The translations under genes and the position numbers were made by a program. Positions 2,813 through 46,793 of a DNA stretch of 64,000 nucleotides are shown here, piece after piece (positions within the stretch are counted from its first letter, which is position 1; every line of letters begins with the position of its first letter). The notes under the pieces are model-generated. The model was given only the letters and a program-made list of their open reading frames with translations, did no database searches and was not told the origin of the DNA. Location of the stretch: assembly GCA_049652385.1 (NCBI GenBank), contig JBASDX010000001.1, positions 28,698-92,697 of the forward strand. Reading direction: 5' to 3'. Source of the DNA: Bacteroidales bacterium (GTDB lineage: Bacteria > Bacteroidota > Bacteroidia > Bacteroidales > UBA932).

Positions 2813-2934
2813 ACTTTCATTTTTTTTAATTTCGAGTCTTTGCTTTCTGTTAAAAACCATTTTTCCTGTTCGTCACTCCACAGAGTACGCACCTGCTTGT
2901 CCTCAAAGACTTGTATGGATTCTTTTTTACTCAT
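2809..2934 (-). pseudogene. 41-codon ORF; possible truncated remnant of a BRO-N/antirepressor-like gene
   Basis: My own translation is [41 protein letters not shown]. Its ATG overlaps the methyltransferase stop (GATGAGTAA). The N-terminal motif F-x-x-K-x-VR-x-x-W-x-D-E-x-E-K-W resembles N-termini of longer DNA-binding proteins seen in R-M loci; this is from memory, not searched. Confidence 0.25.
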
Positions 2935-4456
2935 CTGTGTCATCTTCCGTGTTTAAATCCATAGGACGAATCATACTTTCAATGAAATCTATTTCTTCTT
3001 GGGTTAAACCGTATTTTTTGTAAAGTTTTTCGTCTGTCCAAGGTTCAGAGAAATCTTGAGCAGGCACAAACTGATACACACCTCTTGCAGCATTTTGAGT
3101 GTTTTTCTTAAACAAAACTAAAAATCGAAAAAATTTAGTGTTAATATAACTAATTACATTCTTTGCAATTATTTCATTCGAATAAGGCCCTATAAGTAAA
3201 TAGGTTTCTGAGCAGACTGTCCACTTCTCTCCAAGAAAGGGTTGTCCCAAAACTCTATACGGGAATGATCCTCTCTCACCATATGCTTTGGCAATAAAAA
3301 CTTTGAATTCTTTTATCCATTCCGTATTTTGGATAATGGATCCCTTATCAATATACCCGTTGTTAGGATAAGAATATATTTTAACACTATTAGCAAATTT
3401 TTTATTTTTAGGTTTTACGGAACTAACTATACCAAAAGGTTTTCTCGAACTAATTTGTTTAAAAAATTGATCTTCCTTCTTTTGAGCTATTTTTCTTATT
3501 ATTGGTATGGACTCATTAAAACGAATAAAGCTATCAGTATTTTTTTCAAGCAAAGGTCTCTTAAGTCTGGATTCCTCTCCTTTTCTTATCGAGACGACCT
3601 CACAATCACCATAATAAGCCTTTTCCCATAGAAAATAACAAACGCCACCTGATATATCAACACCTGGAAAACACTCGGTTGAATCAAAATAATCAACTAG
3701 TTTTGAAATTCTTCTATCATTTAACATTTCCTCCCTGAATTCATCCAATCCTTTTCCTCCAGCGAACCAACGAGATGGGATAATCATTGAAAGATATTTA
3801 GGACTCATTTTTTTTGCCTGTTGAATAAATTTCTGATATATAGGTGTTGCGCTTGTACCCATACCTCCTCCATCACTCAGCTGATAAGGTGGATTGCCTA
3901 TAATGACATCAAACTTCATATTAAATATTTTTTCCGGGTTCTTTGTATGAATAAAGTTATAAGCATAAGTCTCTAACGCATCATCACGGTCGTATACGTC
4001 TTGGCTTGCACCGCAATAAGAACATTTTCCATCTTGCCAGGTATGTTGCATGCGCTTGTAATAGATATTGCCTTGTTCGTTATCAAAGGCTTCACAAACA
4101 GAGTATTTACCATTGGCTGTTTTAGAGCAATAGACACTTCTGCGCGAAAGAAAAGAGGTGAGTTCCGTAATGGCTATGCCATAGAGTTGCTTGCTGAAAA
4201 TATGGTTAATACGTTCTTGCTTGTCGGGTATTTTGGTTTCCAGGCCGTGCATGAGCCTCTTTGCCATCTCTCGCAAGAACACGCCCGTTTTACTTACAGG
4301 GTCCAGAAAGCGGGCGTTTGGATTACTCCACAACTCGGCAGGCAATAAATCCAGCATGTCGTTTACCAAATGGGGTGGCGTAAACACCTCGTCGTTGCTT
4401 AAGTTGGCAAGGCAGGTGAGCACATCGGGATTATAATTTGTTTGCATCATCACCAA
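2927..4456 (-). CDS. Eco57I-family N6-adenine DNA methyltransferase
   Basis: 509 aa. Motif X is [14 protein letters not shown], motif I-like is [12 protein letters not shown], and the catalytic motif IV is IIGNPPYQ. A long C-terminal region could be the target-recognition part. Confidence 0.85.
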
Positions 4457-5093
4457 GTTTTAAGAAGTGAATAAGCGGAAAGTCTTTTATGGGTTCGTCA
4501 ATAGAAGCGGCTTGTCCCTCGTCATTGAAGAGTGAAAATTGATGGGTTTTCTCTACCAAGAACTTAAATACATAATCTCTACGCTTCATCATAAAACCGT
4601 TGACAGCGCTCCATTCTGAAAAAACGATGGGCTCTTTAGTCACCGGATTCGTAAAATCCAGGGCATCGCCCCAAAGAATATTTCTGTTTAACAAGAAACG
4701 AATACTTCGTTTGCATTCCTCTTTACAATTTTCTTTAAACAAAGCGTGGTACCGCTCGTTAAAAATGGTAAATAGGCGCTCTCTGCATTCCCGGGCGTTG
4801 TCTTCTAATATTTCTACTCCATAAATGCTAGATATAGCTAGGACAGCATAACGCTCCCAGTCAAATTGGTTTTTACTGTATTGCCGGTCAACCACACTGA
4901 GTTTCCTTTTGAGTATTTCTGCAAGAAAGTTGCCGTTTCCACAAGCAGGCTCTAAGAAGCGAGAGTCTATGCGTTCCGTTTCATGTTTTACCAAATCAAG
5001 CATTGCATTTACTTCCCGCTCGTTAGTAAACACTTCTCCGTGGTCTGCAACCCTTTTTTTGGATTTTACTTGTTTGCTTGCTTGTTGTGTCAT
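4431..5093 (-). CDS. Methyltransferase-like protein with a SAM-binding half only (no NPPY catalytic motif)
   Basis: 220 aa. [17 protein letters not shown] (motif X-like), [12 protein letters not shown] (motif I), IYGVEI, ILWGDAL. The protein ends without any (D/N)PPY motif. Overlaps the next methyltransferase gene by 26 nt. Confidence 0.6.
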
Positions 5094-5099
5094 TTCGCT

Positions 5100-6929
5100 T
5101 TAATATTCACTAACATCCTCTTCCTCATTGATATAAATACCTTCCTCTTCGTTGCTTTTCTCACGAGCAATGGTTTTCCCCATGGCTTTTTCTATGCGTT
5201 GTAAAATACGCTCTTGCCTGTCTTTGAAAAAGCCATAAAAATCATCTTGATACAGAAAATCCGGATTGACTACATGAGTTTCTAATATTTCAATGAATTC
5301 ATCATCTGAAACATTTAATTTTTTCTTCAGACGATCCAGATATTTACTGGGTGCATCTCCGCTTACAAATCGATTAGTTCTACCCGACAAAGGTGTTTTA
5401 TTGATAATAGAGTCATAGGAACTTCGTGGAATAGCATTCTCCGCTTTTTCGCACCACGCAATAGGAAATATATGATGAATATCTATAGATTCTGAAAAAT
5501 AAGTGCTGAAATCAATTTTTGTCCCAGAGAGCCAGTCACGGGTGTTGTTATCTAATAAGACGGCATAGACTCCTTTGTACGCAGCACTGTTTCTTGTTCT
5601 TAGTGTAAGTAATCGAGACGGAACAAAGTTCGCGTCAAAAATAGTTTTTGGTTCGGGCCCGTTATTACTTATCCAATCTATAACCTGTACAATATCGAGG
5701 GCATATCTTGTTTCGTTGGCAGAACCATATAGTTCTCCAAAAACACCACACCAGAACCAACGCATAAGCTTATTCTTATTGCCGATATTGTCAATTTCAT
5801 TTCCTAATTGTGAAAGAATAGCTGCCATGGGAACCAGTTGAGTCGTGTAAGGAACGTCTCTTGAGTGAAATATGTGGTTTTCAACAAGTATTTTGGATGC
5901 TTTGATAAAACCTTCTGCTACCTGCTCTTTATATTTCAAATAATCGGGAAGTTCCAGATTTAACATTTCCTTTCTCTTTGCGCTTACCGCAGGGAGATTT
6001 TCTTTTTGACCGCTAAGCTCATGATAGATTCTACTCCTGTAGGTGGAGACAAGAGTGACAGCCTGAATAAAATCCGTTTCACTGGTTTTGTCCAATACTT
6101 TGTACGGTTTAAATTGTGTTTTGATATGTAACCAGTCTTCTTTTAAGTCAAATTCTTCAGAAGCAAAAGTGGCGGTAAGGAGCTCAAAGACGGTAAGTGA
6201 TACCCCACCGGTATTGACTTTTTCAAATACTTGACAAACAGCTTCTTTGGGGTTCTCCTTAGTCATTTGAATAACAGGCAGTGAATAATTGTTGAATCCT
6301 AGAATAATTTTTTTGTGAAACTCATTCCAGAATTTGATTTTTTCTTTATCATAATCCCAATACTCAAAAAAAGCAGGAAACCACGTGTCGTATTCATCTA
6401 CCATGCTTACAGGGTACATGAGACTTTCAAATTCCTTTTCTTGTGTTGTGAGATCTAATACAATATCACGCCCGATATTCTCGGTAATTATTTTATTCTC
6501 GTTGATGGAAAAGATGGCTTCCTCAAGATCGGTTCCGGGGTCAAGGGCTTTTTGCATATCAATATAATACCATCTCTTGATTTCATATCCTTTGGCATTT
6601 TTGGTTGTTACAACCTTGTTTGATATGATAGCCTGATATAGAGAGGTAAGACGTTGTTGTCCATCAAGGATTAGCAATTCAGGTTTGCTGGAATTTGTTA
6701 ATGGAGCACCTTCTACCATTTTTGTCTTGAAACGAACAGACTCATTTCCTGTTTCAAGTAACATCACGGCTCCAATAGGGAAGGATTTAGCAACACTTGC
6801 CAATATGCCTTTTATTCGATTGTCATCCCAGACCCATCCTCTCTGAAAATCTGGCAGTTGAATTTTCCCTATATGTATGTTTTTTAGAATTTCATAAAGA
6901 CTTGTCTTCTTTGAATCAAAAGTTTCCAT
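5100..6929 (-). CDS. GmrSD-type enzyme: DUF262 (ParB-like NTPase) N-domain + DUF1524 His-Me finger nuclease C-domain
   Basis: 609 aa. Contains LPDFQRGWVW and the LILDGQQRLTSL (DGQQR) motif, plus C-terminal IDIHHIFP...INKTPLSGRTN. Its stop is 6 nt from the next gene start. Confidence 0.85.
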   Translation of the reverse strand: METFDSKKTSLYEILKNIHIGKIQLPDFQRGWVWDDNRIKGILASVAKSFPIGAVMLLETGNESVRFKTKMVEGAPLTNSSKPELLILDGQQRLTSLYQAIISNKVVTTKNAKGYEIKRWYYIDMQKALDPGTDLEEAIFSINENKIITENIGRDIVLDLTTQEKEFESLMYPVSMVDEYDTWFPAFFEYWDYDKEKIKFWNEFHKKIILGFNNYSLPVIQMTKENPKEAVCQVFEKVNTGGVSLTVFELLTATFASEEFDLKEDWLHIKTQFKPYKVLDKTSETDFIQAVTLVSTYRSRIYHELSGQKENLPAVSAKRKEMLNLELPDYLKYKEQVAEGFIKASKILVENHIFHSRDVPYTTQLVPMAAILSQLGNEIDNIGNKNKLMRWFWCGVFGELYGSANETRYALDIVQVIDWISNNGPEPKTIFDANFVPSRLLTLRTRNSAAYKGVYAVLLDNNTRDWLSGTKIDFSTYFSESIDIHHIFPIAWCEKAENAIPRSSYDSIINKTPLSGRTNRFVSGDAPSKYLDRLKKKLNVSDDEFIEILETHVVNPDFLYQDDFYGFFKDRQERILQRIEKAMGKTIAREKSNEEEGIYINEEEDVSEY

Positions 6930-7221
6930 AATAGAATATTCGATAATTGATTTAAGTATTAGTTGTCCTTGAGCCGAAGCTGTTTATTTTCGGGTTTACT
7001 AGATATATTCAAATTTATGAAAAAACCCTCTGAGCACAAAAACCACTAATCCCCAAATAGTTTTATCAGAAGATATTTCTTGAAGGCTCAAGCGCGATGG
7101 AGTATCATTTAAATTTTGGCTTTTCAAAAAGCATGGAAGCACCGTCAAGTAGACACCCTAATATAATCAATACTATCAGCAACATAATAGACAGTTATTA
7201 ATAGGTTGGTAATTACGCCAC

Positions 7222-7260
7222 TTAAAATAAAAAAGCCCTACGTCAAAACATGACGTAGGC
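7222..7260 (-). terminator. Rho-independent terminator-like hairpin
   Basis: CCTACGTCA-aaaca-TGACGTAGG stem, followed on the minus strand by CTTTTTTATTTT. Confidence 0.5.
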
Positions 7261-7262
7261 AT

Positions 7263-7352
7263 ATTTATGCAACGCATAAAAGCGTTAAACGACAGTGACA
7301 CAGCAGCTTGTAAGAAATGGTCCTGCGGGGTACGACTTCTCATAATTAGCAG
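7263..7352. repeat. Intergenic repeat core, copy A (about 90 nt)
   Basis: ATTTATGCAACGCATAAAAGCGTTAAA...GGTCC...CATAATTAGCAG. 74 of 90 positions are identical to 10565-10654 in my hand alignment. Confidence 0.8.
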
Positions 7353-7400
7353 TAAATCAGCAAAATGAGCACTTTATGCGACGCATGAAAAGCTGTCGGT

Positions 7401-7450
7401 AACAAAAAAGCGGAAGCCTCTGCCCGTTCCCTTTGCTTCCGCGTTTTGTT
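7401..7450. repeat. Conserved hairpin AACAAAAAAGCGGAAGC-loop-GCTTCCGCGTTTTGTT, copy A
   Basis: Inverted repeat read directly. The same arms recur at 9793-9841 and, degenerate, at 12384-12435. Confidence 0.8.
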
Positions 7451-7491
7451 ATGGTAGCGCCTAATTAAAAAATTGATCAGACACTAAAGTT

Positions 7492-9468
7492 TTAAAGTAC
7501 AGGAATCCCTATTTCTTTCAAATACAGGAACGTAGGGTCGTAAAATGTAGACTGTCGGGTGAGGTCATTTTCGCTTCCTTTGGGTACGACTATTACCATT
7601 CCTTGGCGTGCCCTTGTTAGAAGAACACGGTAAGCATTTATTAAATAGCTTATTCTTTCTGGTTTTCGAATTCGTTGCCATTTGGTACCCACAAATGAGA
7701 ATGTTTCCCAACCAGTTTCTTCATATCTTAAATCCCCATCCCACGTAACGCATGCCCAATCAAGTTCCAAACCTTGGATTTGAAATTCTGTGGCTACGTC
7801 TTCAAGAAAATATGAAGAGCGGACATCATCTTTACCATTTAAAAACCAATGTACCGGATTTATTGGAGTCCTTACATCAATGGCATGTGGTTTCAATCTT
7901 TGGGCCTGAGAAGATACAATTAAGCCATATCGCTCACTGCCTCTAGCTTTTCTTTTCAACCAATCTTTAGCCTTAGATAAATCGCGTGTAATGACAATTG
8001 GGTAGTTGTCTTTTATTAATTCATACATCTCTTTTGCTTTTTCTTTTTCCATATCAAGCAAATACTTCACAAATGAAGAAAGGTTTTCAGCTCTAAATGA
8101 TCGCATTGATACGTTGAGATGTAAATCTACGTTTTGATAGACTTTGGTTATCTGTTGTAACTCTTTTACGGCTTCTTCTGCATCATATTCTGATTCAATC
8201 AGGTTGGGAGAAATATAAACGTTCCAGTGTGGGAATTCATTTTTGATTGCCTTCAACCATTCAGAAATCCCAGCCTCACCGGTATTAATTTCTTGTCCAC
8301 CACCTACTAGGCAAACAATTACAGCCCAATCTTCATGACGATTTAGACATGATATAAGAAACTCGGGTTCAGAGTAATCAAAATTGGGTTGATTCTTTTT
8401 TGACTTCATAAACTTAACAGTCTGTTCTTTATTCCATGCTCTTTGAGCTTCATCAAAAATGGCAACATGATCGTATGGTGGTTTTTGATCAACTAAGTAG
8501 GCGTCTCTGTAATGGTGTATATTTTGGATAAATGTTTTAACACTGGATTTTATTTGTCCTTTAGTAAGTCTCGTATCTGAATCTGCCTGGTTTTTTAGTC
8601 TATCTCTAGTTAATGCTTCTTGCAAAACAGCCACAAGTGGCCCGTTACCCGACAAATAAACACTCATTGTGTTACCGACTTCATCTTGTCGTGTTGTAGC
8701 GATTTTTAATCCAACTAATGTTTTTCCTGCACCAGGAACGCCTGTAACAAAACAAATGATTTTTGAGTGTTCCGATTTGGCCTTTTCTATGATATCAGAT
8801 ATGACTGAGGTAGTCTTTGTTAAGTTAATGGCGCCGGCATCAGACCTTGTGATATTAGCTACTGAATGGTTCTGATATAATGCTATTGCTGCTTCAACGA
8901 TTGTTGGAGTAGGAGAGTAACTACCATAAGCAAACTCTTCTGAATTAATTCTATTCTCATCAAAAAAGAAGGTTAAAGCATTATTAATAACCTCAATAAG
9001 ACCAGATTTGTTAATCTTTAAAGGTTCTAATAGGTTGTCATTATGGGGAGTAGTAATTAGATTGATATACGAATGAGAAGCATCCGTAGCCAGCAAAATA
9101 GGGACAATCAAGGCTTTGTGACTGGGTTCATGAAAATATTTAAGGTCCAATGCGTAATCATATACCTGTTCTATATCTGCTCTTAGATAATTTTTCTCTC
9201 CGACTTTGAATTCAATTAAAAAAACAACCCCTTCAATCAATAAAAGGACATCTACACGTTTACCCATACGCGGAATCGAAAACTCAAAAAAGATAGTTCC
9301 TTCATAGGAATTAAGAGCTTTTTTTAAGAACTCAATTTCATATTCCCAGGCACTGTTTTGTTTAAATAAGGTATCAAAGGTGTTGTTTCGTGTAATCTCT
9401 CCAATAATATCACTTGTGGTTTTTGAAAGAAAGGAAGATATGCTGTCTTTGTAATAATAATTACGCAT
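7492..9468 (-). CDS. PD-(D/E)xK nuclease-like N-domain + DUF2075 (Schlafen-like SF1) ATPase/helicase
   Basis: 658 aa. N-terminal VDVLLL...LIEFK fits a D...ExK motif. Walker A is GVPGAGKT, Walker B is IFDEAQRAW, and C-terminal LLTRARQGMVIVV is SF1 motif VI-like. Confidence 0.8.
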   Translation of the reverse strand: MRNYYYKDSISSFLSKTTSDIIGEITRNNTFDTLFKQNSAWEYEIEFLKKALNSYEGTIFFEFSIPRMGKRVDVLLLIEGVVFLIEFKVGEKNYLRADIEQVYDYALDLKYFHEPSHKALIVPILLATDASHSYINLITTPHNDNLLEPLKINKSGLIEVINNALTFFFDENRINSEEFAYGSYSPTPTIVEAAIALYQNHSVANITRSDAGAINLTKTTSVISDIIEKAKSEHSKIICFVTGVPGAGKTLVGLKIATTRQDEVGNTMSVYLSGNGPLVAVLQEALTRDRLKNQADSDTRLTKGQIKSSVKTFIQNIHHYRDAYLVDQKPPYDHVAIFDEAQRAWNKEQTVKFMKSKKNQPNFDYSEPEFLISCLNRHEDWAVIVCLVGGGQEINTGEAGISEWLKAIKNEFPHWNVYISPNLIESEYDAEEAVKELQQITKVYQNVDLHLNVSMRSFRAENLSSFVKYLLDMEKEKAKEMYELIKDNYPIVITRDLSKAKDWLKRKARGSERYGLIVSSQAQRLKPHAIDVRTPINPVHWFLNGKDDVRSSYFLEDVATEFQIQGLELDWACVTWDGDLRYEETGWETFSFVGTKWQRIRKPERISYLINAYRVLLTRARQGMVIVVPKGSENDLTRQSTFYDPTFLYLKEIGIPVL

Positions 9469-9792
9469 GAATTAATACTATTTATGATCAGATATTATTC
9501 TGATATTTTGCATATTTATTTCAAAGTTACGTCAAAACGTGGCGTTTTAATAAAGATGATTCGTGCTGTTTTGAAGTGTTTTGCATAGGGGCGGCTTTAA
9601 ACATAGATTTAAGGAAGTATAACAAAGATAAAATATTATTGTTGAGGTTCATAAGTACCACAAAAAACAAAAAATTGTTCTTTGAGAAGATACAGCTTTT
9701 TACAAAACACGGTCCCGCAGGTCGCAATTTTTTTTACTGGAAGTGTGTCAAGGAGATGAGCATTCTATGCGATGCATGGTAATGTTGCCTGT

Positions 9793-9841
9793 AACAAAAC
9801 GCGGAAGCCTCGATACGTTCCACTTGCTTCCGCGTTTTGTT
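9793..9841. repeat. Conserved hairpin AACAAAACGCGGAAGC-17 nt-GCTTCCGCGTTTTGTT, copy B (perfect 16-bp arms)
   Basis: Read directly. Located 38 nt downstream of the lipoprotein gene stop (minus strand). Confidence 0.85.
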
Positions 9842-9878
9842 ATTGCAACTCCTATAAAGTAAATAAAGATGATTTAGA

Positions 9879-10340
9879 TTATTTGGTAAATGTAATCCAC
9901 TCAGCGTCATCTTCGTCCTTCAGTCTGATTTTGAATGAATTGTCTGAAAGAACACGAATGTCTAAAGCTACGTCCAGCGGTATTTCTCCTATTGTTAATA
10001 AAGTAAGTGTATTACCATCTTTAGAGACGAAAAAATAGCAATCAATAAAAGCATCTAAATAACCGTCATCATATTCGTCAAAAACAACAGGAAGTCTTAA
10101 TTTGCCATGTACTAACACAGTTACAATATCAACAAAAGTTGCTTCTTTTGGCGGGTTGTACTTTTCAAGAAAAATGAGTTGAACATTTTCTTCTTCAACA
10201 TTTGCCTGGAATGTTCCATTTAATACACGTAAAACATCTATTTGAGCTTGCGTGAAATGTTCTGGACTCATAGCATCTTGCGGAACACAGGCAATCATCC
10301 ATAATGCTAGCCCGGTAAGGAATAAGATAGATTTTCTCAT
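9879..10340 (-). CDS. Hypothetical lipoprotein
   Basis: 153 aa. Signal peptide with a lipobox-like LWMIAC. No recognisable domain. Confidence 0.6.
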   Translation of the reverse strand: MRKSILFLTGLALWMIACVPQDAMSPEHFTQAQIDVLRVLNGTFQANVEEENVQLIFLEKYNPPKEATFVDIVTVLVHGKLRLPVVFDEYDDGYLDAFIDCYFFVSKDGNTLTLLTIGEIPLDVALDIRVLSDNSFKIRLKDEDDAEWITFTK

Positions 10341-10441
10341 AATTACAATTTTAAGGTTAAAGAATAATTGTTTTCTACAAAGAAAACCGCTCTCTACGTC
10401 AAATCATGTCGTTCTCTTCAGAAGGAATCCATTTTTGTAAA

Positions 10442-10540
10442 ACAAGGTGGTAAGTAATAAATTTGTTGCTGAAAGCTGTAAATGCCAGGTAATCTGCCAA
10501 ATGTGCATGTGTTGGAGTTATGTATTACTTACCACCTTGT
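10442..10540. repeat. Perfect 18-bp inverted repeat (ACAAGGTGGTAAGTAATA / TATTACTTACCACCTTGT) with a 63-nt spacer, followed by a T-run
   Basis: Read directly. GCAGTTTTTT follows the right arm. Confidence 0.8.
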
Positions 10541-10564
10541 GCAGTTTTTTAATGAAAACGGCCT

Positions 10565-10654
10565 ATTTATGCAACGCATAAAAGCGTTAAATGGCGGTAA
10601 TACAGCAGTTTGTGAGAAACGGTCCCCAAGGGGATGACTTTTCATAATTGGCAG
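10565..10654. repeat. Intergenic repeat core, copy C
   Basis: Aligns with 7263-7352 (74/90 identical by hand). Confidence 0.8.
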
Positions 10655-10701
10655 AGAGCCAAGAAGATAAGCGAATTACGCAACGCATAAAAGTTGTTCG
10701 C

Positions 10702-11394
10702 CTATAGCAAATACTCCAGAATATCACTGATGCAATCCAGCTCCAGAAAGCGCTCGCTTTGTGAGGTATAGGGGATTTCTTCGTGGGCCCAGGTGACATG
10801 GTGAGGGATGTGGGCGGCGTAGGCGCCGAGTTCCAGGACGGGTACGATGTCCGATCGCATGGAGTTGCCAATCATCAGAAAGTTGTCTGCCGGGCAATCC
10901 AGGTGGTGCAGCAGTTTGGTGTACTCGGTACGGGTCTTGTCGCTCATGATTTCAATGTGGTGGAAATACCGCTCCAGTCCGGATTTTCTTAACTTCCGTT
11001 CCTGATCCAGCAGGTCGCCTTTGGTGGCTACGACCAGACGGTAGCGTCCGTTCAGCCGTTCCAGGGTTTCAACAACACCCGGTAACAGTTCAATGGGTTT
11101 TTGCAACATGTCCCTGCCCATATTCAGGATATCTTGTACCCGTGCAGCTGGCAAAGTGTTGTCAGAGATGCGGATGGCTGTATCTATCATGCTCAACACA
11201 AACGCTTTCACGCCGTATCCGTACCATTCCAGATCTTCTACGATTGTTTTATCCAGCTCTTTTTGTACTTCTTCTACCGGCATGTAGGCACTCAGCATGG
11301 CACACAATTTTTTGCTTGACTCACGGAAAAACAGCTCGTTCACCCATAAGGTATCGTCTGCATCGAACGCTATGGTTTTGATCTTTTCTTTCAT
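10702..11394 (-). CDS. HAD-superfamily hydrolase
   Basis: 230 aa. Has motif I FDADDTLW, a later ATKGD, and IGNSMRSD (motif IV region). Confidence 0.8.
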   Translation of the reverse strand: MKEKIKTIAFDADDTLWVNELFFRESSKKLCAMLSAYMPVEEVQKELDKTIVEDLEWYGYGVKAFVLSMIDTAIRISDNTLPAARVQDILNMGRDMLQKPIELLPGVVETLERLNGRYRLVVATKGDLLDQERKLRKSGLERYFHHIEIMSDKTRTEYTKLLHHLDCPADNFLMIGNSMRSDIVPVLELGAYAAHIPHHVTWAHEEIPYTSQSERFLELDCISDILEYLL

Positions 11395-11514
11395 TTGGCT
11401 GCAAAGATAGGAAGATCATATGCCATAAAACAAAAAAGAATTTTAAAATTTGTAAAAATGTACATATATTTGTACAATTATATGTGCAAACAATTTGGTT
11501 AAGTAGGAGTGAAT

Positions 11515-11769
11515 ATGTTAACAACAACACTATCAGACTTCAGAAAAGATATGAAGTCATATTTTGATAAAGTAACAATGAATAGTGACACCTTGATTAT
11601 CAACAGAGGTAAGGATACAGGTGTGGTAATCATCTCTTTGGAAGAATATAATGCTTTACAAGCAACTCAGCATGAATTGTCATCAAAGCTTAATGAGCAG
11701 AGGTTAGACGCAGCCATAGAAAAATTGAGGAGTGGAAAATCGTTTTCAAAAGAAATTAACACCGAATGA
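11515..11769 (+). CDS. yefM: Phd/YefM-family antitoxin
   Basis: MLTTTLSDFRKDMKSYFDKV...VIISLEEYNALQ. Its stop overlaps the toxin start (ATGA). Confidence 0.85.
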   Translation: MLTTTLSDFRKDMKSYFDKVTMNSDTLIINRGKDTGVVIISLEEYNALQATQHELSSKLNEQRLDAAIEKLRSGKSFSKEINTE

Positions 11770-12023
11770 GATATATTTTTGTTGACGAGTCGTGGGAAGA
11801 CTATTTGTATTGGCAAGAGACAGACAAAAAAATCTTGGAAAAGATTAACAAGCTTTTAAAAGATATTGCTAGAAATCCGTATAATGGAATTGGGAAACCG
11901 GAGCCATTAAAGTTTAAATATCAAGGTTTTTGGTCTAGAAGAATTTCGCGTGAACATAGGCTTATCTATCAAGTGAAAGATAACGACATACTTATAGCTA
12001 AGTGTAGATTTCATTATGATTGA
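11766..12023 (+). CDS. yoeB: YoeB/Txe-family toxin (ribosome-dependent mRNA interferase)
   Basis: 85 aa. ESWEDYLYWQETDKKILEKINKLLKD...GKPEPLK...GFWSRRISREHRLIY...CRFHY is very close to the E. coli YoeB pattern. Confidence 0.9.
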   Translation: MRYIFVDESWEDYLYWQETDKKILEKINKLLKDIARNPYNGIGKPEPLKFKYQGFWSRRISREHRLIYQVKDNDILIAKCRFHYD

Positions 12024-12071
12024 GACAGCCGGCCGCTCTGTCGATAGCAGCAAGCCGGGCTTCTTGTTCCC

Positions 12072-12290
12072 AGGTAGTGAGTAGTGTAAAAACGCCAAAC
12101 GCCGCAACGTTGTGTATATCTGCGCGTTAGCGCTCCGTTTAAAAAATGGTCACTCACTACCCAGCCAAGAAAATACCGAAAACTGGCCTTTTTGCTTCTA
12201 GGTAGTGAGTTCAACAAAACAGGAAAAGAGGGTAAGCGATTGAATGCCAGGATAGTAGGAGGGCAAACGAAAAAACGCTACTCACTACCC
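12072..12290. repeat. Two inverted-repeat units with AGGTAGTGAGT / ACTCACTACCC arms
   Basis: Arms lie at 12072-12082(+), 12152-12162(-), 12200-12210(+) and 12280-12290(-). A degenerate fifth copy lies at 12469-12478. Confidence 0.75.
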
Positions 12291-12383
12291 AGCCAACTAC
12301 CATGACGTTGCGGGCATATAACAGGACGCTTTTGCTAGCTACGTCATTGCAGGCAGTCAACCTGCAAAACGTAGCCGGAATTG

Positions 12384-12435
12384 CAACAAACGAGCGGAAG
12401 CCTCGGCAAAACTCCCCGGATTCTGCGCTTTGTTG
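12384..12435. repeat. Degenerate copy D of the AACAAA..GCGGAAGC hairpin family
   Basis: CAACAAACGAGCGGAAGCCTCGG...TTCTGCGCTTTGTTG. Confidence 0.5.
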
Positions 12436-12482
12436 CAGAAACGGCAATGACACAAGGTGCAGAGTACTAGGTAATGAGCGGT

Positions 12483-12538
12483 GTGCCAGCTTGATGCTGG
12501 CACATTAACATAAGTCTTGGCACGCCATTGGGCGTGCC
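12483..12538. other. Two adjacent GC-rich 8-bp hairpins (GTGCCAGC-ttgat-GCTGGCAC and GGCACGCC-attg-GGCGTGCC)
   Basis: Read directly. No flanking gene explains them. Confidence 0.6.
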
Positions 12539-12904
12539 GCCCTGCCTACAAAAAATACTTTTTTGTGTCAGTTACTTTGTTTGAGCTTCTGCGAAAAGCT
12601 CTGTAGTACGAAGCAGTGTTAGCGATTGCGTAAAAGAAAGCCAACAAAAAAAAAGAACCAAAGGAAAACAAAGGTAAGCACTTCACAGAGCGCCGTAGTA
12701 GAAGTGAAACGTGACAGCGAGGCGGACTGTAGCGGCTAAGGAAAACATTGGCTCCCGAAAAGGAGGGGAACCACCGTCAGGTGGGGAGGATTTTCCGTGC
12801 CGATACAGCCGGCTGCCCCATTACGTGCGAGGAAAGGAACCACGGATTTCTGTTGTTTTTCGTAATTTAGGGGCTGCAAACGAAAAAACCTAACGAATAC
12901 ATAT

Positions 12905-13450
12905 ATGAAACCATTCTCTGAATTGATAAAGCGGCGCCAGAGTACGCGCGCTTACATTGACAAACCCATTGAGGAAGAAAAGATTCTGCAATGCCTGGAG
13001 GCGGCTCGGTTGGCGCCCTCGGCGTATAACCAGCAGCCCTGGAACTTTGTGGTGGTAGATGAGCCGGACCTAAAAAACCGGGTAGCGGCGTGTACGGCCG
13101 GACTGGGAATGAATTTTTTTGCTTCGCAGGCACCGGTACTGGTAGTAGTGGTGCTGGATAAAGAGCATGTGATGTCCTCGCTCGGCGGATTGGTGAAAGA
13201 CAAGAATTTCTGCGATTACGACGTGGGTATGGCCGTCAATCAGTTTTGTCTGCAAGCGGCCGAGCTGGACCTGGACACGTGCATCATGGGCTGGTTTAAG
13301 GAAGAGAAAATCAAGAAGTTGTTGCAGGTGGACAAAAGAAGGCGCATAGCCCTGATGGTGGCCCTGGGGTATTCAGAGGCCCGCATCCGGGAGAAGAAAC
13401 GCAAGCCGCTGGAGGAAATGAGCAGCCGGAACGCATATAGAAAACCATAA
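12905..13450 (+). CDS. Nitroreductase-family protein
   Basis: 181 aa. RRQSTRAY...LEAARLAPSAYNQQPWNFVVV. Confidence 0.85.
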   Translation: MKPFSELIKRRQSTRAYIDKPIEEEKILQCLEAARLAPSAYNQQPWNFVVVDEPDLKNRVAACTAGLGMNFFASQAPVLVVVVLDKEHVMSSLGGLVKDKNFCDYDVGMAVNQFCLQAAELDLDTCIMGWFKEEKIKKLLQVDKRRRIALMVALGYSEARIREKKRKPLEEMSSRNAYRKP

Positions 13451-16910: not shown

Positions 16911-17228
16911 ATGGCAAAAAGGACAATGGGGACAAAACTTCCTCGAAAACTGGAGCAGAAGATGCAGACAGTGGGAGAACAAATCAAACTGGCTCGTCTG
17001 CGAAGAAATTTAAGTATAGCACAAGTTGCCGAGCGTGCCACCTGTTCGCCACTTACAGTAGCACGTATAGAAAAAGGAACCTCTACGGTAGCCATCGGTA
17101 TCTATTTGCGCGTACTCTACGCACTGCAATTGGATGATGATATTCTGTGGCTTGCCAAAGAAGACAAACTGGGCAGGGCTTTACAAGATTTAAGTATGGT
17201 TGTTCGCCAGCGTGCTTCTAAAAAGTAA
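16911..17228 (+). CDS. hipB: XRE-family HTH antitoxin (HipB-like)
   Basis: LRRNLSIAQVAERATCSPLTVARIEKG. Lies directly upstream of hipA. Confidence 0.8.
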   Translation: MAKRTMGTKLPRKLEQKMQTVGEQIKLARLRRNLSIAQVAERATCSPLTVARIEKGTSTVAIGIYLRVLYALQLDDDILWLAKEDKLGRALQDLSMVVRQRASKK

Positions 17229-17233
17229 TTGCG

Positions 17234-18496
17234 ATGAAAAAAACATTAGTATATGCTGATTTTGATTGGCTTAAGGAAATAACGCTTGTGGGGGAACTCA
17301 GCTATCAATCCATTCGTGGTTCTGATAGTTATGGGTTTACGTTTGATGACGAATGGCTTATAAAATACGGAAGCTTGTTTCTAAGTGCGGATCTGAATAA
17401 CTACCCGGGACTGCAATATACCCAACCCGGAAAAGATATATTTGGATGCTTTTCTGACGTACTTCCTGATCGTTGGGGAAGGACGTTGTTGAACCGTAGA
17501 GAACAGATTTTGGCTGCGGAAGAAAACCGTCCCGCCCGCCGGCTTTCCTCTTATGATTATCTTATAGGCATTGATGATTTTTCCAGAATGGGTGGATTTC
17601 GATTTAAAGAACAAGTTGAGCATGATTTTATAAACAAGAACAGTCGGTTTACCATCCCTCCCATTGCAAGCATAAGGTCGTTATTTCAGGCCAGTCAAGA
17701 GATTGAAAGAAGTGAGGAAAGCAGCCAATTGCCTGACAAGAAATGGCTTACACAATTGATTCAACCCGGAACTTCCCTGGGAGGAGCTCGCCCTAAAGCA
17801 AGTGTAATAGATGAAAACAAGCGTTTATATATGGCAAAATTTCCATCGCGCAAAGATGATTACGACTGTGGTTTATGGGAGCATTTTTGCCACCTGCTTG
17901 CCCAAAAAGCAGGTATACATACCGCACAATCACAAGTGCTTTCTCTTAGTGAGAAATACCACACATTTTTGTCACGAAGGTTTGACAGAACAGATAGCGG
18001 AAAACGCATCCATTTTGCCTCTGCCCTCACTGCATTAGGTTTCTCGGATGGAGACAGTGCTTCTTCCGGACACGGTTATCCGGATATTGTAGACTTCATA
18101 GTACAAAACTGCACCGATGTAGAAACCAACCTCCAGGAACTTTTCCGCCGTGTGGCTTTCAATATTTGTATAGCCAATTCCGATGATCATTTTCGCAACC
18201 ACGGTTTTATCCTTACCGCCAGGGGATGGACCCTTTCTCCTGCCTACGACATGAATCCCAGTCTAAACAAGTACCAAAGTCTGCTTATTTCCAAATCTTC
18301 CAATAAAGCGGACTTATCAATTTTATTGAATGCATCTGAAGATTATATGCTTTATAAAACAACGGCTGAACAAATAATATCTCAGGTAGTAACCGTTGTA
18401 AAAAACTGGCAACCACTGGCAACCCGGTTAGGTATTACAAAACGGGAAATGGACACCTTTGGAGAGGTATTTAAAAAACGCACCAATGTTTTGTAG
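17234..18496 (+). CDS. hipA: HipA-family serine/threonine kinase toxin
   Basis: 420 aa. SLGGARPKA and NSDDHFRNHGF catalytic-loop motifs. Confidence 0.9.
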   Translation: MKKTLVYADFDWLKEITLVGELSYQSIRGSDSYGFTFDDEWLIKYGSLFLSADLNNYPGLQYTQPGKDIFGCFSDVLPDRWGRTLLNRREQILAAEENRPARRLSSYDYLIGIDDFSRMGGFRFKEQVEHDFINKNSRFTIPPIASIRSLFQASQEIERSEESSQLPDKKWLTQLIQPGTSLGGARPKASVIDENKRLYMAKFPSRKDDYDCGLWEHFCHLLAQKAGIHTAQSQVLSLSEKYHTFLSRRFDRTDSGKRIHFASALTALGFSDGDSASSGHGYPDIVDFIVQNCTDVETNLQELFRRVAFNICIANSDDHFRNHGFILTARGWTLSPAYDMNPSLNKYQSLLISKSSNKADLSILLNASEDYMLYKTTAEQIISQVVTVVKNWQPLATRLGITKREMDTFGEVFKKRTNVL

Positions 18497-18504
18497 CAGA
18501 AAGC

Positions 18505-18539
18505 CGTTCTATTTCTTCAGCTTGACCACCAGCAGGCAG
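18505..18539. repeat. Roughly 33-35-bp copy of the 3' end of the cupin gene (matches 21883-21915)
   Basis: CGTT(C)TATTTCTTCAGCTTGACCACCA(G/A)CAGGC(A/G)G occurs at both places, in direct orientation. Confidence 0.75.
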
Positions 18540-18673
18540 TAGCACTTATAGAAAAAGGAATGCCTACGGTAGCTATAGGTATCTACTTGCGCGTACTCTA
18601 CGCACTGCAATTGGATGATGATATTCTGTGGCTTGCCACAGAAGACAAACCGGGCAAAATTTTGCAAGATTTA
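18537..18673 (+). pseudogene. hipB 3' fragment (duplicate of 17056-17192)
   Basis: About 123 of 137 positions are identical by hand alignment. The region encodes ...AIGIYLRVLYALQLDDDILWLA... as in HipB. There is no 5' half and no downstream hipA. Confidence 0.8.
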
Positions 18674-18749
18674 CGTATTACAAAAAAATATCCGAGAACC
18701 TGGATGTACCAAAGCTCCCGGATATGTCATGAGGCAATAGCCATCCGGA

Positions 18750-46012: not shown

Positions 46013-46755
46013 TGACTTTCTTCCGGCTTACGGATAAAAATCTTACAGACAGAATATTAAGAAAAGAAATACGTAAAACCTTTGGTTTTTGGCCAAAGAA
46101 GTTGGCGTATTATAAAACAGCCCTCACACATCGATCTGCCGCATCGCATGATTGCGAATCTAACGAACGTCTGGAGTTTTTGGGTGATGCTGTTTTAGGC
46201 ATGGTGGTAGGAGAAGCTGTTTACAACAGGTACTCCCATGCAGATGAAGGTTATTTGACACAAATGCGCTCCAAACTCGTAAGTCGTGATTCGTTGAACA
46301 GGATTGCTGTCAGCGCCGGCATACACGAGTGGCTTCTTGTAAAAGGGAAAGACGTCAACTCCCGCAACCTGGCCGGTAATATGTACGAAGCGTTGGCAGG
46401 CGCCATTTTCTTGGACATCGGTTTTAGAAAAAGTAAAAAGGTTTTGCTCAACCATTTGCTTTCGCATGTGGATTGGCAAGCATTGGAATGTACGGAAACA
46501 GATTTCAAATCCCGATTGGTAGAACGTTATCAGAAAAAAGGAAAAACACTTTCTTTCCACGTACAGATGCTCCCACAAAAACCGGGAAAGCAAGTATCTT
46601 TTCAAGCTCAAGTAGTTACGGATAGCAGTGTTTTGGGAACGGGCACAGGGTGTTCAAAAAAGGACGCTGAACAAGAAGCCTCCAGACAAGCCTGGATGAG
46701 TGAATGTAACAGAGTTGTTGTGACCTCGGAGGGATTCGAACCCTCGACCCAATGA
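46012..46755 (+). CDS. rnc: Ribonuclease III
   Basis: Has the ERLEFLGDAVL signature and a C-terminal dsRBD. The last codons run antisense into tRNA-Lys. Confidence 0.9.
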   Translation: MTFFRLTDKNLTDRILRKEIRKTFGFWPKKLAYYKTALTHRSAASHDCESNERLEFLGDAVLGMVVGEAVYNRYSHADEGYLTQMRSKLVSRDSLNRIAVSAGIHEWLLVKGKDVNSRNLAGNMYEALAGAIFLDIGFRKSKKVLLNHLLSHVDWQALECTETDFKSRLVERYQKKGKTLSFHVQMLPQKPGKQVSFQAQVVTDSSVLGTGTGCSKKDAEQEASRQAWMSECNRVVVTSEGFEPSTQ

Positions 46756-46793
46756 TTAAGAGTCATTTGCTCTACCACCTGAGCTACGAAGTC
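46721..46793 (-). tRNA. tRNA-Lys (anticodon CUU)
   Basis: Hand-folded cloverleaf: acceptor GACTTCG/CGAGGTC, D arm GCTC..GAGC, anticodon stem AATGA/TCATT with loop CTCTTAA, and T arm GAGGG-TTCGAAT-CCCTC. 73 nt; no encoded CCA. Confidence 0.9.

Follow-up and report, generated by a model that had tools for sequence, protein, structure and literature searches.

What is the non-coding element that recurs between three consecutive minus-strand genes of a Bacteroidales genome, and why does it lie there? The 64,000-nucleotide stretch that we analyzed (hereafter the window; contig JBASDX010000001.1) comes from a metagenome-assembled Bacteroidales genome often encountered in anaerobic digesters and biogas reactors. 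Downstream of its DUF2075 gene, its gene for a 153-amino acid protein and its gene for a HAD-family hydrolase (hereafter HAD), it carries sequence drawn from the same parts: a small hairpin (hairpin i), a core bounded by two short palindromes (ii and iii) and a stronger hairpin (hairpin iv). A preliminary description, made from the letters of the window, had noticed this module and offered several interpretations: shared terminators or 3′-untranslated region (3′-UTR) RNAs, an element resembling repetitive extragenic palindromes (REPs) or miniature inverted-repeat transposable elements (MITEs), or recombination sites that shuffle defense and toxin–antitoxin (TA) cassettes.

Our analysis confirms that observation in substance, corrects the extent of the parts, narrows their distribution and finds the interpretation partly right. 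The reading that we favor, with a probability of about 50%, is that the module represents the native region downstream of HAD, reiterated during gene insertion, and is not one functional unit. It is most likely neither an RNA gene nor a classical integron site.

The module and its counterpart beside HAD

The module is present in the window as module A (7238–7463), module B (9527–9854) and module C (10394–10697), which share, on the plus strand, the order hairpin i, core, hairpin iv, with palindromes ii and iii at the bounds of the core. All four parts lie where the preliminary description had placed them, and the repeat that it had presented as a 90-nt core is real but longer, since A and C align over 139 nt at 77% identity (7258–7396 versus 10560–10697; E = 1e-24). 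A and B align over 100 nt at 79% identity (E = 6e-17). Core A (7263–7393, minus strand; 108.6 bits) carries palindrome ii at 7264–7280 and palindrome iii at 7373–7390; core C (10565–10695, minus strand; 104 bits), which begins about 5 nt past the HAD stop codon, carries them at 10566–10582 and 10675–10692, respectively. What had been taken for an 18-nt fragment in module B is in fact a full-length, diverged core (9658–9785, minus strand; 88.9 bits), in which palindrome iii is kept (9764–9780) and palindrome ii has decayed. The mini-palindromes iii also stood up to counting: allowing one mismatch at most, TATGCNNNGCATA has 7 matches against 1.7 expected, 5 of them within modules. Modules B and C contain an extra 110–150 nt between core and hairpin i, and module C has no hairpin iv because the HAD stop codon (10702) directly adjoins its core.

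The distribution of the module is narrow. Searches of the remaining 50 kb of the window and of the 10 kb past its start, by BLAST and with a sequence-only core model built from seven copies, detected no further copy; the module is absent from the block of GmrSD, methyltransferase, helicase and HARE-HTH genes, and from the HipBA and HTH-ImmA/PIN pairs. Its assignment to every cassette boundary was an overstatement, as it marks only the three boundaries nearest HAD, and the degenerate module reported after the TA pair is merely a relative of hairpin iv. Copy number was estimated from contig depth in public DNA runs, in which the organism reaches depths of 42 and 15, with contigs compared at 80% likeness. 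One further core, copy E, with both end palindromes and their spacing kept, lies on a 44.9-kb contig of the same depth, and one further hairpin iv, copy F, also lies on a contig of that depth; no additional copies for B and C appeared in the DNA runs at 80% likeness. The core family is therefore low-copy, with about 4–5 members per genome and, as far as the sequence examined shows, tied to one hotspot. BLAST of the module against plasmids and phages gave no match, nor did the copy-built core model in the DUF2075 loci of other species. A scan of a collection of genome contigs with TTTATGCRACGCATRAAA returned at least 117 matches, all of which, among those checked, were due to chance, several of them lying in the htpG coding motif NEFMRRMKEM, and a scan of metagenome contigs with AGCACTTTATGCGACGCAT, in a collection that seems to lack samples of this organism, returned only 7 unrelated soil contigs.

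Related genomes point to where the module came from. In L143, a different species whose HAD is 85% identical, and in L144 (88%), the alignment runs past the HAD stop codon and through the core (window 10565–11396, about 80% identical). The orthologues of core C lie directly after HAD (L143 1253–1382; L144 2887–3017), and hairpin i follows 9 nt after the core. In all, the core is found directly 3′ of the HAD stop codon in three other lineages. Since the L143 and L144 alignments continue through the core, with hairpin i next to it, core and hairpin i would together be the ancestral downstream flank of HAD in this group. The relative L150 (HAD 83%) has no core after HAD, a different repeat, the G element described below, being there instead, and in more distant relatives (64%) a CAT gene directly follows HAD.

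The arrangement in L142 (HAD 95% identical) illustrates how strains differ. Its HAD-side core is truncated (model positions 4–85) and overlapped by an oppositely oriented AbiE pair. This is followed by a complete module of the A type, with 81% identity to A over 219 nt and a core (3294–3424) that is the copy in L142 closest to core A, then the same 153-amino acid gene, module B (core at 4432–4560), a DUF2075 gene (92% identical) and DISARM-like genes that replace GmrSD. The junctions between the L142 and window blocks fall at the outer edge of palindrome ii (~10560–10567), at about model position 85 of the core beside HAD and at the stop codon of DUF2075; strains differ, in other words, by blocks with ends at or near repeat parts. 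AbiEii itself ends inside the truncated L142 core, on the opposite strand (1384–1464), its last codons and stop codon being core-derived sequence. In the window, the linker before palindrome iii of module A looks like the stretch that immediately follows HAD's stop codon. The preliminary description had itself considered that the copies might be remnants of the duplicated 3′ flank of one gene, and the comparison of relatives comes close to this.

We propose that a native region consisting of a ~130-bp dyad-symmetric DNA element, followed by a promoter-proximal hairpin, was probably copied three times at the HAD-proximal end of the hotspot. The copies may have arisen by segmental duplication or by homologous (Campbell-like) recombination as gene units inserted. 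They would serve mainly as transcriptional punctuation, with each acquired gene autonomously expressed, and could also provide homology for further rearrangement. Segmental reiteration is favored because the element is orthologous at HAD in several species, and because the duplicated unit exceeds the palindromic ends with no target duplication: A/B homology takes in hairpin iv and 12 nt beyond, A/C homology extends about 5 nt past both palindromes, and no direct repeat flanks copies A and C or those of L143 and L144. A weaker argument is that the flank of copy E resembles the last HAD codons, a likeness seen by eye in a 30-nt loose end.

Hairpins at probable starts and ends of transcription units

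Two of the four parts can be related to transcription of the adjoining genes. The sequence TTTGACGTA occurs on the minus strand at 7239–7247, 9528–9536 and 10395–10403; the 64 kb contain 4 matches against 0.57 expected, a number reached in 0 of 100 shuffles. The motif of hairpin i is shared by the three sites, but only A (7237–7259, minus strand) is a perfect 9-bp hairpin, whose stem is followed by a T-run and folds at −14.9 kcal/mol (z −5.3). Hairpins i B (9527–9545, minus strand) and i C (10394–10412, minus strand) have one mismatch each and fold no better than shuffles. Of the two half-sites of hairpin i, the right one shows good conservation across the sites compared and the left one weaker conservation.

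At nine of the ten hairpin-i sites compared, a TAnnTTTG-like box lies exactly 14 nt past a TTTGACGT-like motif. These nine are A, B and C, two of the three sites in L142, and those of L143, L144, L155 and L160; at the exception, the L142 copy upstream of DUF2075, the box lies 3 nt past the motif. The boxes found 14 nt past TTTG are TATTTTAA for A (7222–7229), TAAATATG for B (9511–9518) and TTTCTTTG for C (10378–10385, with TTTG at 10400–10403), as well as TATTATTG and TAACTATG. The RNA evidence throughout consists of unstranded assembled metatranscriptome contigs (X1, X2 and X5), not of mapped 5′ or 3′ ends. These contigs start 6–15 nt past the box: at 7216 for A, which is the end of an 11.5-kb X1 contig over GmrSD and the genes beyond, and at 10363 (X5, 55.9x) and 10350 (X1) for C. 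Hairpin i B forms the upstream bound of the DUF2075 unit, as homology to the DUF2075 loci of two other species starts at window position 9548 (L155/L156) or 9568 (L160) and stops at the stop codon (7492 and 7489), the contexts being unrelated; hairpin i is kept upstream of DUF2075 in L155 and L160. L142, L143 and L144 have hairpin i, the promoter and a ~150-nt leader in common before different cargo genes. Because RNA starts after the box and DUF2075-locus homology starts at the hairpin, we conclude, from sequence and RNA contig ends together, that hairpin i is probably part of the downstream gene's own promoter and moves with the gene between genomes. Hairpin i A would be the promoter region of the block of GmrSD and restriction-modification genes, and hairpin i C the promoter of the 153-amino acid gene. 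This role was absent from the preliminary interpretation.

In having TTTG, a TAnnTTTG-like box and RNA starts just downstream, hairpin i resembles the promoter of the Bacteroidota primary sigma factor (−33 TTTG, −7 TAnnTTTG). It differs in that TTTG lies within a conserved palindrome, which the consensus does not need, and in that TTTG is about 5 nt closer to the −7 box, the published −33/−7 spacing in Bacteroides being longer by that amount.

Two observations concern the surroundings of DUF2075 orthologues elsewhere. In L160, another digester contig, about five tandem copies of a ~22-nt unit, GGTCGCTGCGCTCTGCAAGTCA, lie upstream of the gene (~870–1000). In L156 (3138–3350) and L159 (3141–3353), a 70-amino acid fragment of a phage-integrase SAM-like domain is encoded about 600 nt downstream of the gene, which in that other Bacteroidales species may be part of a decayed integrative element.

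Hairpin iv has the layout of an A-run, a GC-rich stem and a T-run. Its copy A (7401–7451, minus strand), with a GC-rich stem and then TTTTTTGTT, is the terminator of DUF2075, and its copy B (9792–9842, minus strand), with a perfect 17-bp stem and then TTTTGTT, that of the 153-amino acid gene. The two are 81% identical over 59 nt and have 17-nt arms, which in B are 100% complementary (−27.7 kcal/mol, z −5.2; A, z −1.8). A simple terminator scan missed both, their loops being longer than 8 nt. RNA contigs end inside the hairpins, at 7424 (X1), 7422 (X2) and 9830 (X2). In X5, the 153-amino acid gene is covered alone at 55.9x by a monocistronic contig (9895–10363), with DUF2075 at depth 0. By its sequence, hairpin iv is a Rho-independent, bidirectional-type terminator that closes the upstream gene, consistent with the RNA ends, and it shares with intrinsic terminators the GC-rich stem, the following T-run and the RNA contig ends located there. 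The proposal of shared terminators is thus borne out for hairpin iv, and not for the other parts of the module. The further copy of hairpin iv that had been reported after the TA pair, unit D (12385–12447), fared less well: its identity is no higher than 63%, and its predicted fold is of ordinary stability (z −0.7). With a summed depth of 208 against 42 for a single copy, unit D seems to be a member of another repeat family, with about 5 copies per genome, and no part of the composite module.

The dyad-symmetric core and competing explanations

The core is a ~130-bp element whose ends are two near-identical palindromes about 105–109 bp apart, iii (ATGCGTCGCAT) and ii (ATGCGTTGCAT), each inside TTTYATGC...GCATAAA. 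Because these ends can pair over ~20 nt, like terminal inverted repeats, the core as a whole is dyad-symmetric, and the reverse-strand self-matches of the model agree. Core A shows zero RNA coverage in X1 (7217–7423) between flanks at 21x and 67x; this gap is not an assembly artefact, since the DNA runs assemble through core A without a break. Core C alone is found in RNA, at the end of the HAD transcript (X1 contig 10505–11386). The core acts, if at all, as DNA and not as RNA. A small open reading frame (ORF) within it (MQRIKALN...) was rejected as a gene, as the frame ends differ between copies and the substitutions, counted by hand on the alignment, are spread 8, 6 and 5 over codon positions 1, 2 and 3.

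These data bear on the suggestion that the whole module is a structured RNA, either a 3′-UTR stabilizer or a small RNA processed from the upstream mRNA. Transcription of copy C with HAD, a few compensatory pairs and the folding of some copies, which beats shuffles (C plus strand, z −3.9; L144, z −3.8), speak for it. We nevertheless regard it as very improbable: RNA coverage of core A is nil in X1, an efficient terminator precedes both core A and core B, and copy A folds no better than shuffles on both strands (z −0.5 and −0.7). The search of Rfam for which the preliminary description had called gave no match to core or module; the only entry at threshold in the window was a tRNA (46721–46793), weak matches in 6900–13000 having E values of at least 1.5.

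Several observations weigh against the HAD-flank reading that we favor. The end palindromes of A and C are identical at 26 of 26 nt, compared with 77% overall, and copy E has preserved both ends at an unchanged distance despite a diverged interior. Between L143 and L144, a symmetric double change leaves an internal 12-nt palindrome intact (ACAATATATTGT at ~1334–1345 versus ACAAGATCTTGT at ~2969–2980). Passive duplication leaves these three features unexplained; they would indicate selection on the DNA sites themselves, as fits a protein-binding or recombination site. The two halves of cores A and C differ unequally (65% identity on the left versus 84% on the right), which hints at recombination inside the element. 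The unique DNA between repeat units and ORFs is tight, in the manner of cassettes, with 54 nt upstream and 25 nt downstream of the 153-amino acid gene and 59/29 nt in the other case. In addition, the spacing from TTTG to the −7 box at hairpin i is shorter than that published for Bacteroides, and the RNA support comes from unstranded assembled contigs only, not from mapped ends.

Could the core, or its end palindromes, be a site-specific recombination site, either one of the attC kind or an att site that each insertion restores on its two sides? Gene units would then have been captured beside HAD into an integron-like array by a recombinase encoded elsewhere or brought by the cargo. The size of the core (~125–130 bp), its imperfect dyad symmetry with pairing of palindromes iii and ii, its conserved ends and variable interior, the mosaic similarity of its halves, the single orientation of the genes with minimal unique flanks, and the junctions with L142 at the outer edge of palindrome ii, in the HAD-side core and at the DUF2075 stop codon all suit such a site. 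So does the array core-i-gene-iv-core-i-gene-iv-core, which serial Campbell-type insertions would be expected to give. With respect to size and orientation, attC sites are imperfect palindromes of 55–150 nt after each co-oriented ORF, and here a core of ~130 nt follows each of three minus-strand genes. Their R″ box (RYYYAAC) and R′ box (GTTRRRY) are lacking, however: palindrome iii has GTC/GAC where AAC/GTT is required, and palindrome ii (ATGCAAC/GTTGCAT, read from the alignment) has one mismatch in each. Pfam detected no integrase or recombinase among the larger ORFs of the window or the called genes in the 10 kb past its start. The cassettes bring their own promoters, the 7 kb of cargo in L143 have no internal copies, the DUF2075 units of other species are without hairpin iv and core, and all copies have one orientation, with no joints in the DNA contigs. 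Furthermore, complete integrons are rare in Bacteroidetes (PMC9024848).

On balance, a recombination site seems rather unlikely, and it is doubtful that the core is the attachment site of an undescribed Bacteroidales cassette-capture system, integron-like but with non-canonical sites, self-expressed cassettes and a recombinase elsewhere, that stacks defense genes singly by a housekeeping gene. As for the cassette-shuffling sites of the preliminary description, strains do carry different cargo near the elements, but the surroundings show no recombinase and the cores lack the canonical attC boxes; a shuffling role is conjectural. Narrower candidates were discarded. A dif/Xer-like site has the wrong half-site polarity; the 5-6-5 palindrome AACGC-TTTTAT-GCGTT, a candidate core site for a tyrosine recombinase, has not been preserved in either L143 or L144; and an inverton (invertible promoter) disagrees with eight copies all in one orientation and no strand-switch joints, rare variants lying beyond contig data. 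Variation at the module within the species was likewise rejected, as the public contigs with identical HAD or nitroreductase proteins are 99.4–100% identical to the window and colinear with it.

A different view of the same symmetry is that palindromes ii and iii, the internal palindromes and hairpin i serve as operators to which at least one dimeric DNA-binding protein attaches, within a shared region that co-regulates or silences the acquired defense genes, for example, through a DNA loop joining two sites separated by some ten helical turns. The 11-bp palindromes are indeed 105–109 bp apart in A, C, E, L143 and L144, the symmetric double substitution keeps the internal palindrome, hairpin i overlaps the −20 to −40 region of five different genes or operons and has been retained ahead of DUF2075 in three species, and a role at the DNA level fits the untranscribed core A. 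We consider operators distinctly unlikely, since no candidate regulator recurs beside the element at the different loci, cores A and B stand behind a terminator, with the following start codon 130–300 bp away, decay of palindrome ii in copy B was not accompanied by loss of the gene, and the left half-site of hairpin i is poorly conserved. It is more improbable still that the core is a non-autonomous transposon, whether a MITE or a palindrome-associated element of the IS200/IS605 type, inserted independently after HAD, the 153-amino acid gene and DUF2075 and at E. Its ~130-bp length and the ~20-nt ends resembling terminal inverted repeats would suit a MITE, as would the absence of the core after HAD in L150 and the other interspersed palindromic families of the genome, which have about 5–19 copies in varying orders. 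On the other side, no transposase is nearby, there are just about 4–5 copies at 80% likeness, and the flank of copy E suggests a segmental copy. The REP- or MITE-like character foreseen in the preliminary description fits in part: the core has ends of this kind and dyad symmetry, and neighboring repeat families form genome-wide mosaics. The core is low-copy, however, and its duplicated unit runs past the inverted repeats to include hairpin iv and shows no target duplication.

The hotspot, its neighboring repeats and known systems

Domain assignments from a Pfam scan place the module in a region of phage-defense genes. HAD (10702–11394, minus strand; Hydrolase/HAD_2) is the conserved anchor on one side: its homologues at ~60% identity are found across Bacteroidota, and it is conserved beside differing cargo in L142, L143 and L144. 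The other end of the cargo is marked by a gene for a 185-amino acid GNAT acetyltransferase just past the window start, and the same kind of gene is present in L143. To judge from these gene orders, HAD and the GNAT acetyltransferase bracket a hotspot of phage-defense genes whose cargo varies by lineage. In the window, the cargo comprises the 153-amino acid gene (9879–10340; no Pfam match; the lipoprotein of the preliminary description), DUF2075, a Schlafen group 3 helicase gene (7492–9468; SLFN-g3_helicase, E = 5e-82), GmrSD (5100–6929), a three-gene restriction-modification system and a HARE-HTH gene. A half methyltransferase (4431–5093), an Eco57I-type methyltransferase (2927–4456) and a T5orf172 protein with a ResIII helicase domain (172–2700) are encoded beyond GmrSD; these genes, like GmrSD, DUF2075 and the 153-amino acid gene, are on the minus strand. 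On the far side of HAD, the plus strand encodes a Phd/YoeB pair (11509–12023) and a nitroreductase (12905–13450). L143 carries three genes without known function, then Vsr-Dcm and HpaII, then the 185-amino acid acetyltransferase. L142, in which only the HAD side is readable, carries AbiE, the 153-amino acid gene, DUF2075 and the DISARM-like genes; the latter set (L142/L164 7348–16716: SNF2/NOV_C, DUF1156 and a 973-amino acid gene) replaces both GmrSD and the restriction-modification genes. Elsewhere in the window, the HipA gene is flanked by 142-nt direct repeats (17056–17197 and 18537–18678, 89% identical), and the public contig L013 is without 17198–18536, the exact interval between them. 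As this gap matches the repeats, HipA is gained or lost by recombination between a segment of the HipB gene and a partial copy of it.

The module has other repeat families as neighbors. Repeats that occur genome-wide, and that are joined in other orders at other loci, make up the 880 bp beyond the TA pair. Among them is the G element, a ~90-nt unit with about 19 copies per genome by contig depth, a full copy of which lies at 12724–12812. A degenerate copy downstream of module A (7111–7150) is 70% identical to 12743–12782, and the order of module then G element recurs in L142 (3466–3527). The G element consists of nested hairpins, CTGTATCGGCA...TGCCGATACAG around CCACC-GTCA-GGTGG and CTCCC-GAAA-GGAG, and has no match in Rfam; it is also found at L142 6756–6806 and L150 ~2070–2160, and assemblies often break at it. 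An inverted-repeat unit at 12064–12160 has about 6–10 copies per genome by depth. The ORF-free region 12064–12566 forms its own 503-nt X1 RNA contig at depth 158, compared with 18–51 on neighboring genes, which reflects either high expression or summed repeat copies. Between core C and hairpin i C lies another inverted-repeat unit (10442–10540), with 21-nt arms that are 95% complementary and a 57-nt spacer. By eye, its arms resemble units at 12064–12290; its L142 orthologue (~3660–3770) has uncompensated arm changes, and no other copy was found at 80% or more in the DNA runs.

How does the module compare with known systems? Like the bacterial interspersed mosaic elements of enterobacteria, which are built from REP units, it is extragenic, lies at gene 3′ ends and combines several short kinds of palindromic unit in varying orders, some of which act as terminators or mRNA ends. 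The neighboring G-element and inverted-repeat families (about 19 and 6–10 copies), joined in different orders at other loci, add to the likeness. It differs in that the core family has few copies, all of which fall in a single hotspot as far as the examined sequence goes, in that no RAYT transposase gene is known here, and in its ~130-bp core, which is longer than REPs and unrelated to them in sequence. With attC sites, such as the 123–126-bp repeats of Vibrio cholerae, and with clusters of attC sites lacking integron integrases (CALINs), it shares a similar size, imperfect palindromy, conserved ends and a variable center, as well as a position after consecutive same-strand accessory genes, including defense and TA genes, with very little unique spacer. 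The inverse core sites AAC/GTT are not both present here, however, no IntI gene is nearby, the genes have their own promoters and terminators, and there are only three copies, with none inside the L143 cargo. The Correia, ERIC and RUP-type MITEs of Neisseria, enterobacteria and pneumococci are likewise intergenic, ~100–150 bp long and bounded by terminal inverted repeats, can carry or abut promoter and terminator signals and join in rearrangements. In contrast to them, the element described here is low-copy, lacks a target duplication, is part of a block that exceeds the inverted repeats and occupies an orthologous position in several species. Finally, the locus resembles the defense hotspots that are flanked by core genes, in that HAD and GNAT bracket unrelated defense cargo in the window and in L143, with L142 informative for the HAD side only. 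It departs from them in the partial reiteration of the conserved flank inside the cargo, which, to our knowledge, descriptions of such hotspots do not include.

The locus shows how an uncultured Bacteroidales bacterium from digesters packages the defense genes that it has acquired: each gene appears to bring a promoter hairpin of its own and is closed by a terminator, and copies of the anchor flank lie between the first units. If the palindromes are not recombination or protein-binding sites, the module is ordinary transcriptional punctuation combined with duplication scars, and the main value of the locus would be a well-delimited HAD–GNAT hotspot and a promoter-linked palindrome common to several defense genes. 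If they are such sites, they would offer a testable handle on how defense hotspots gain and lose genes in Bacteroidota, a group in which classical integrons are rare.

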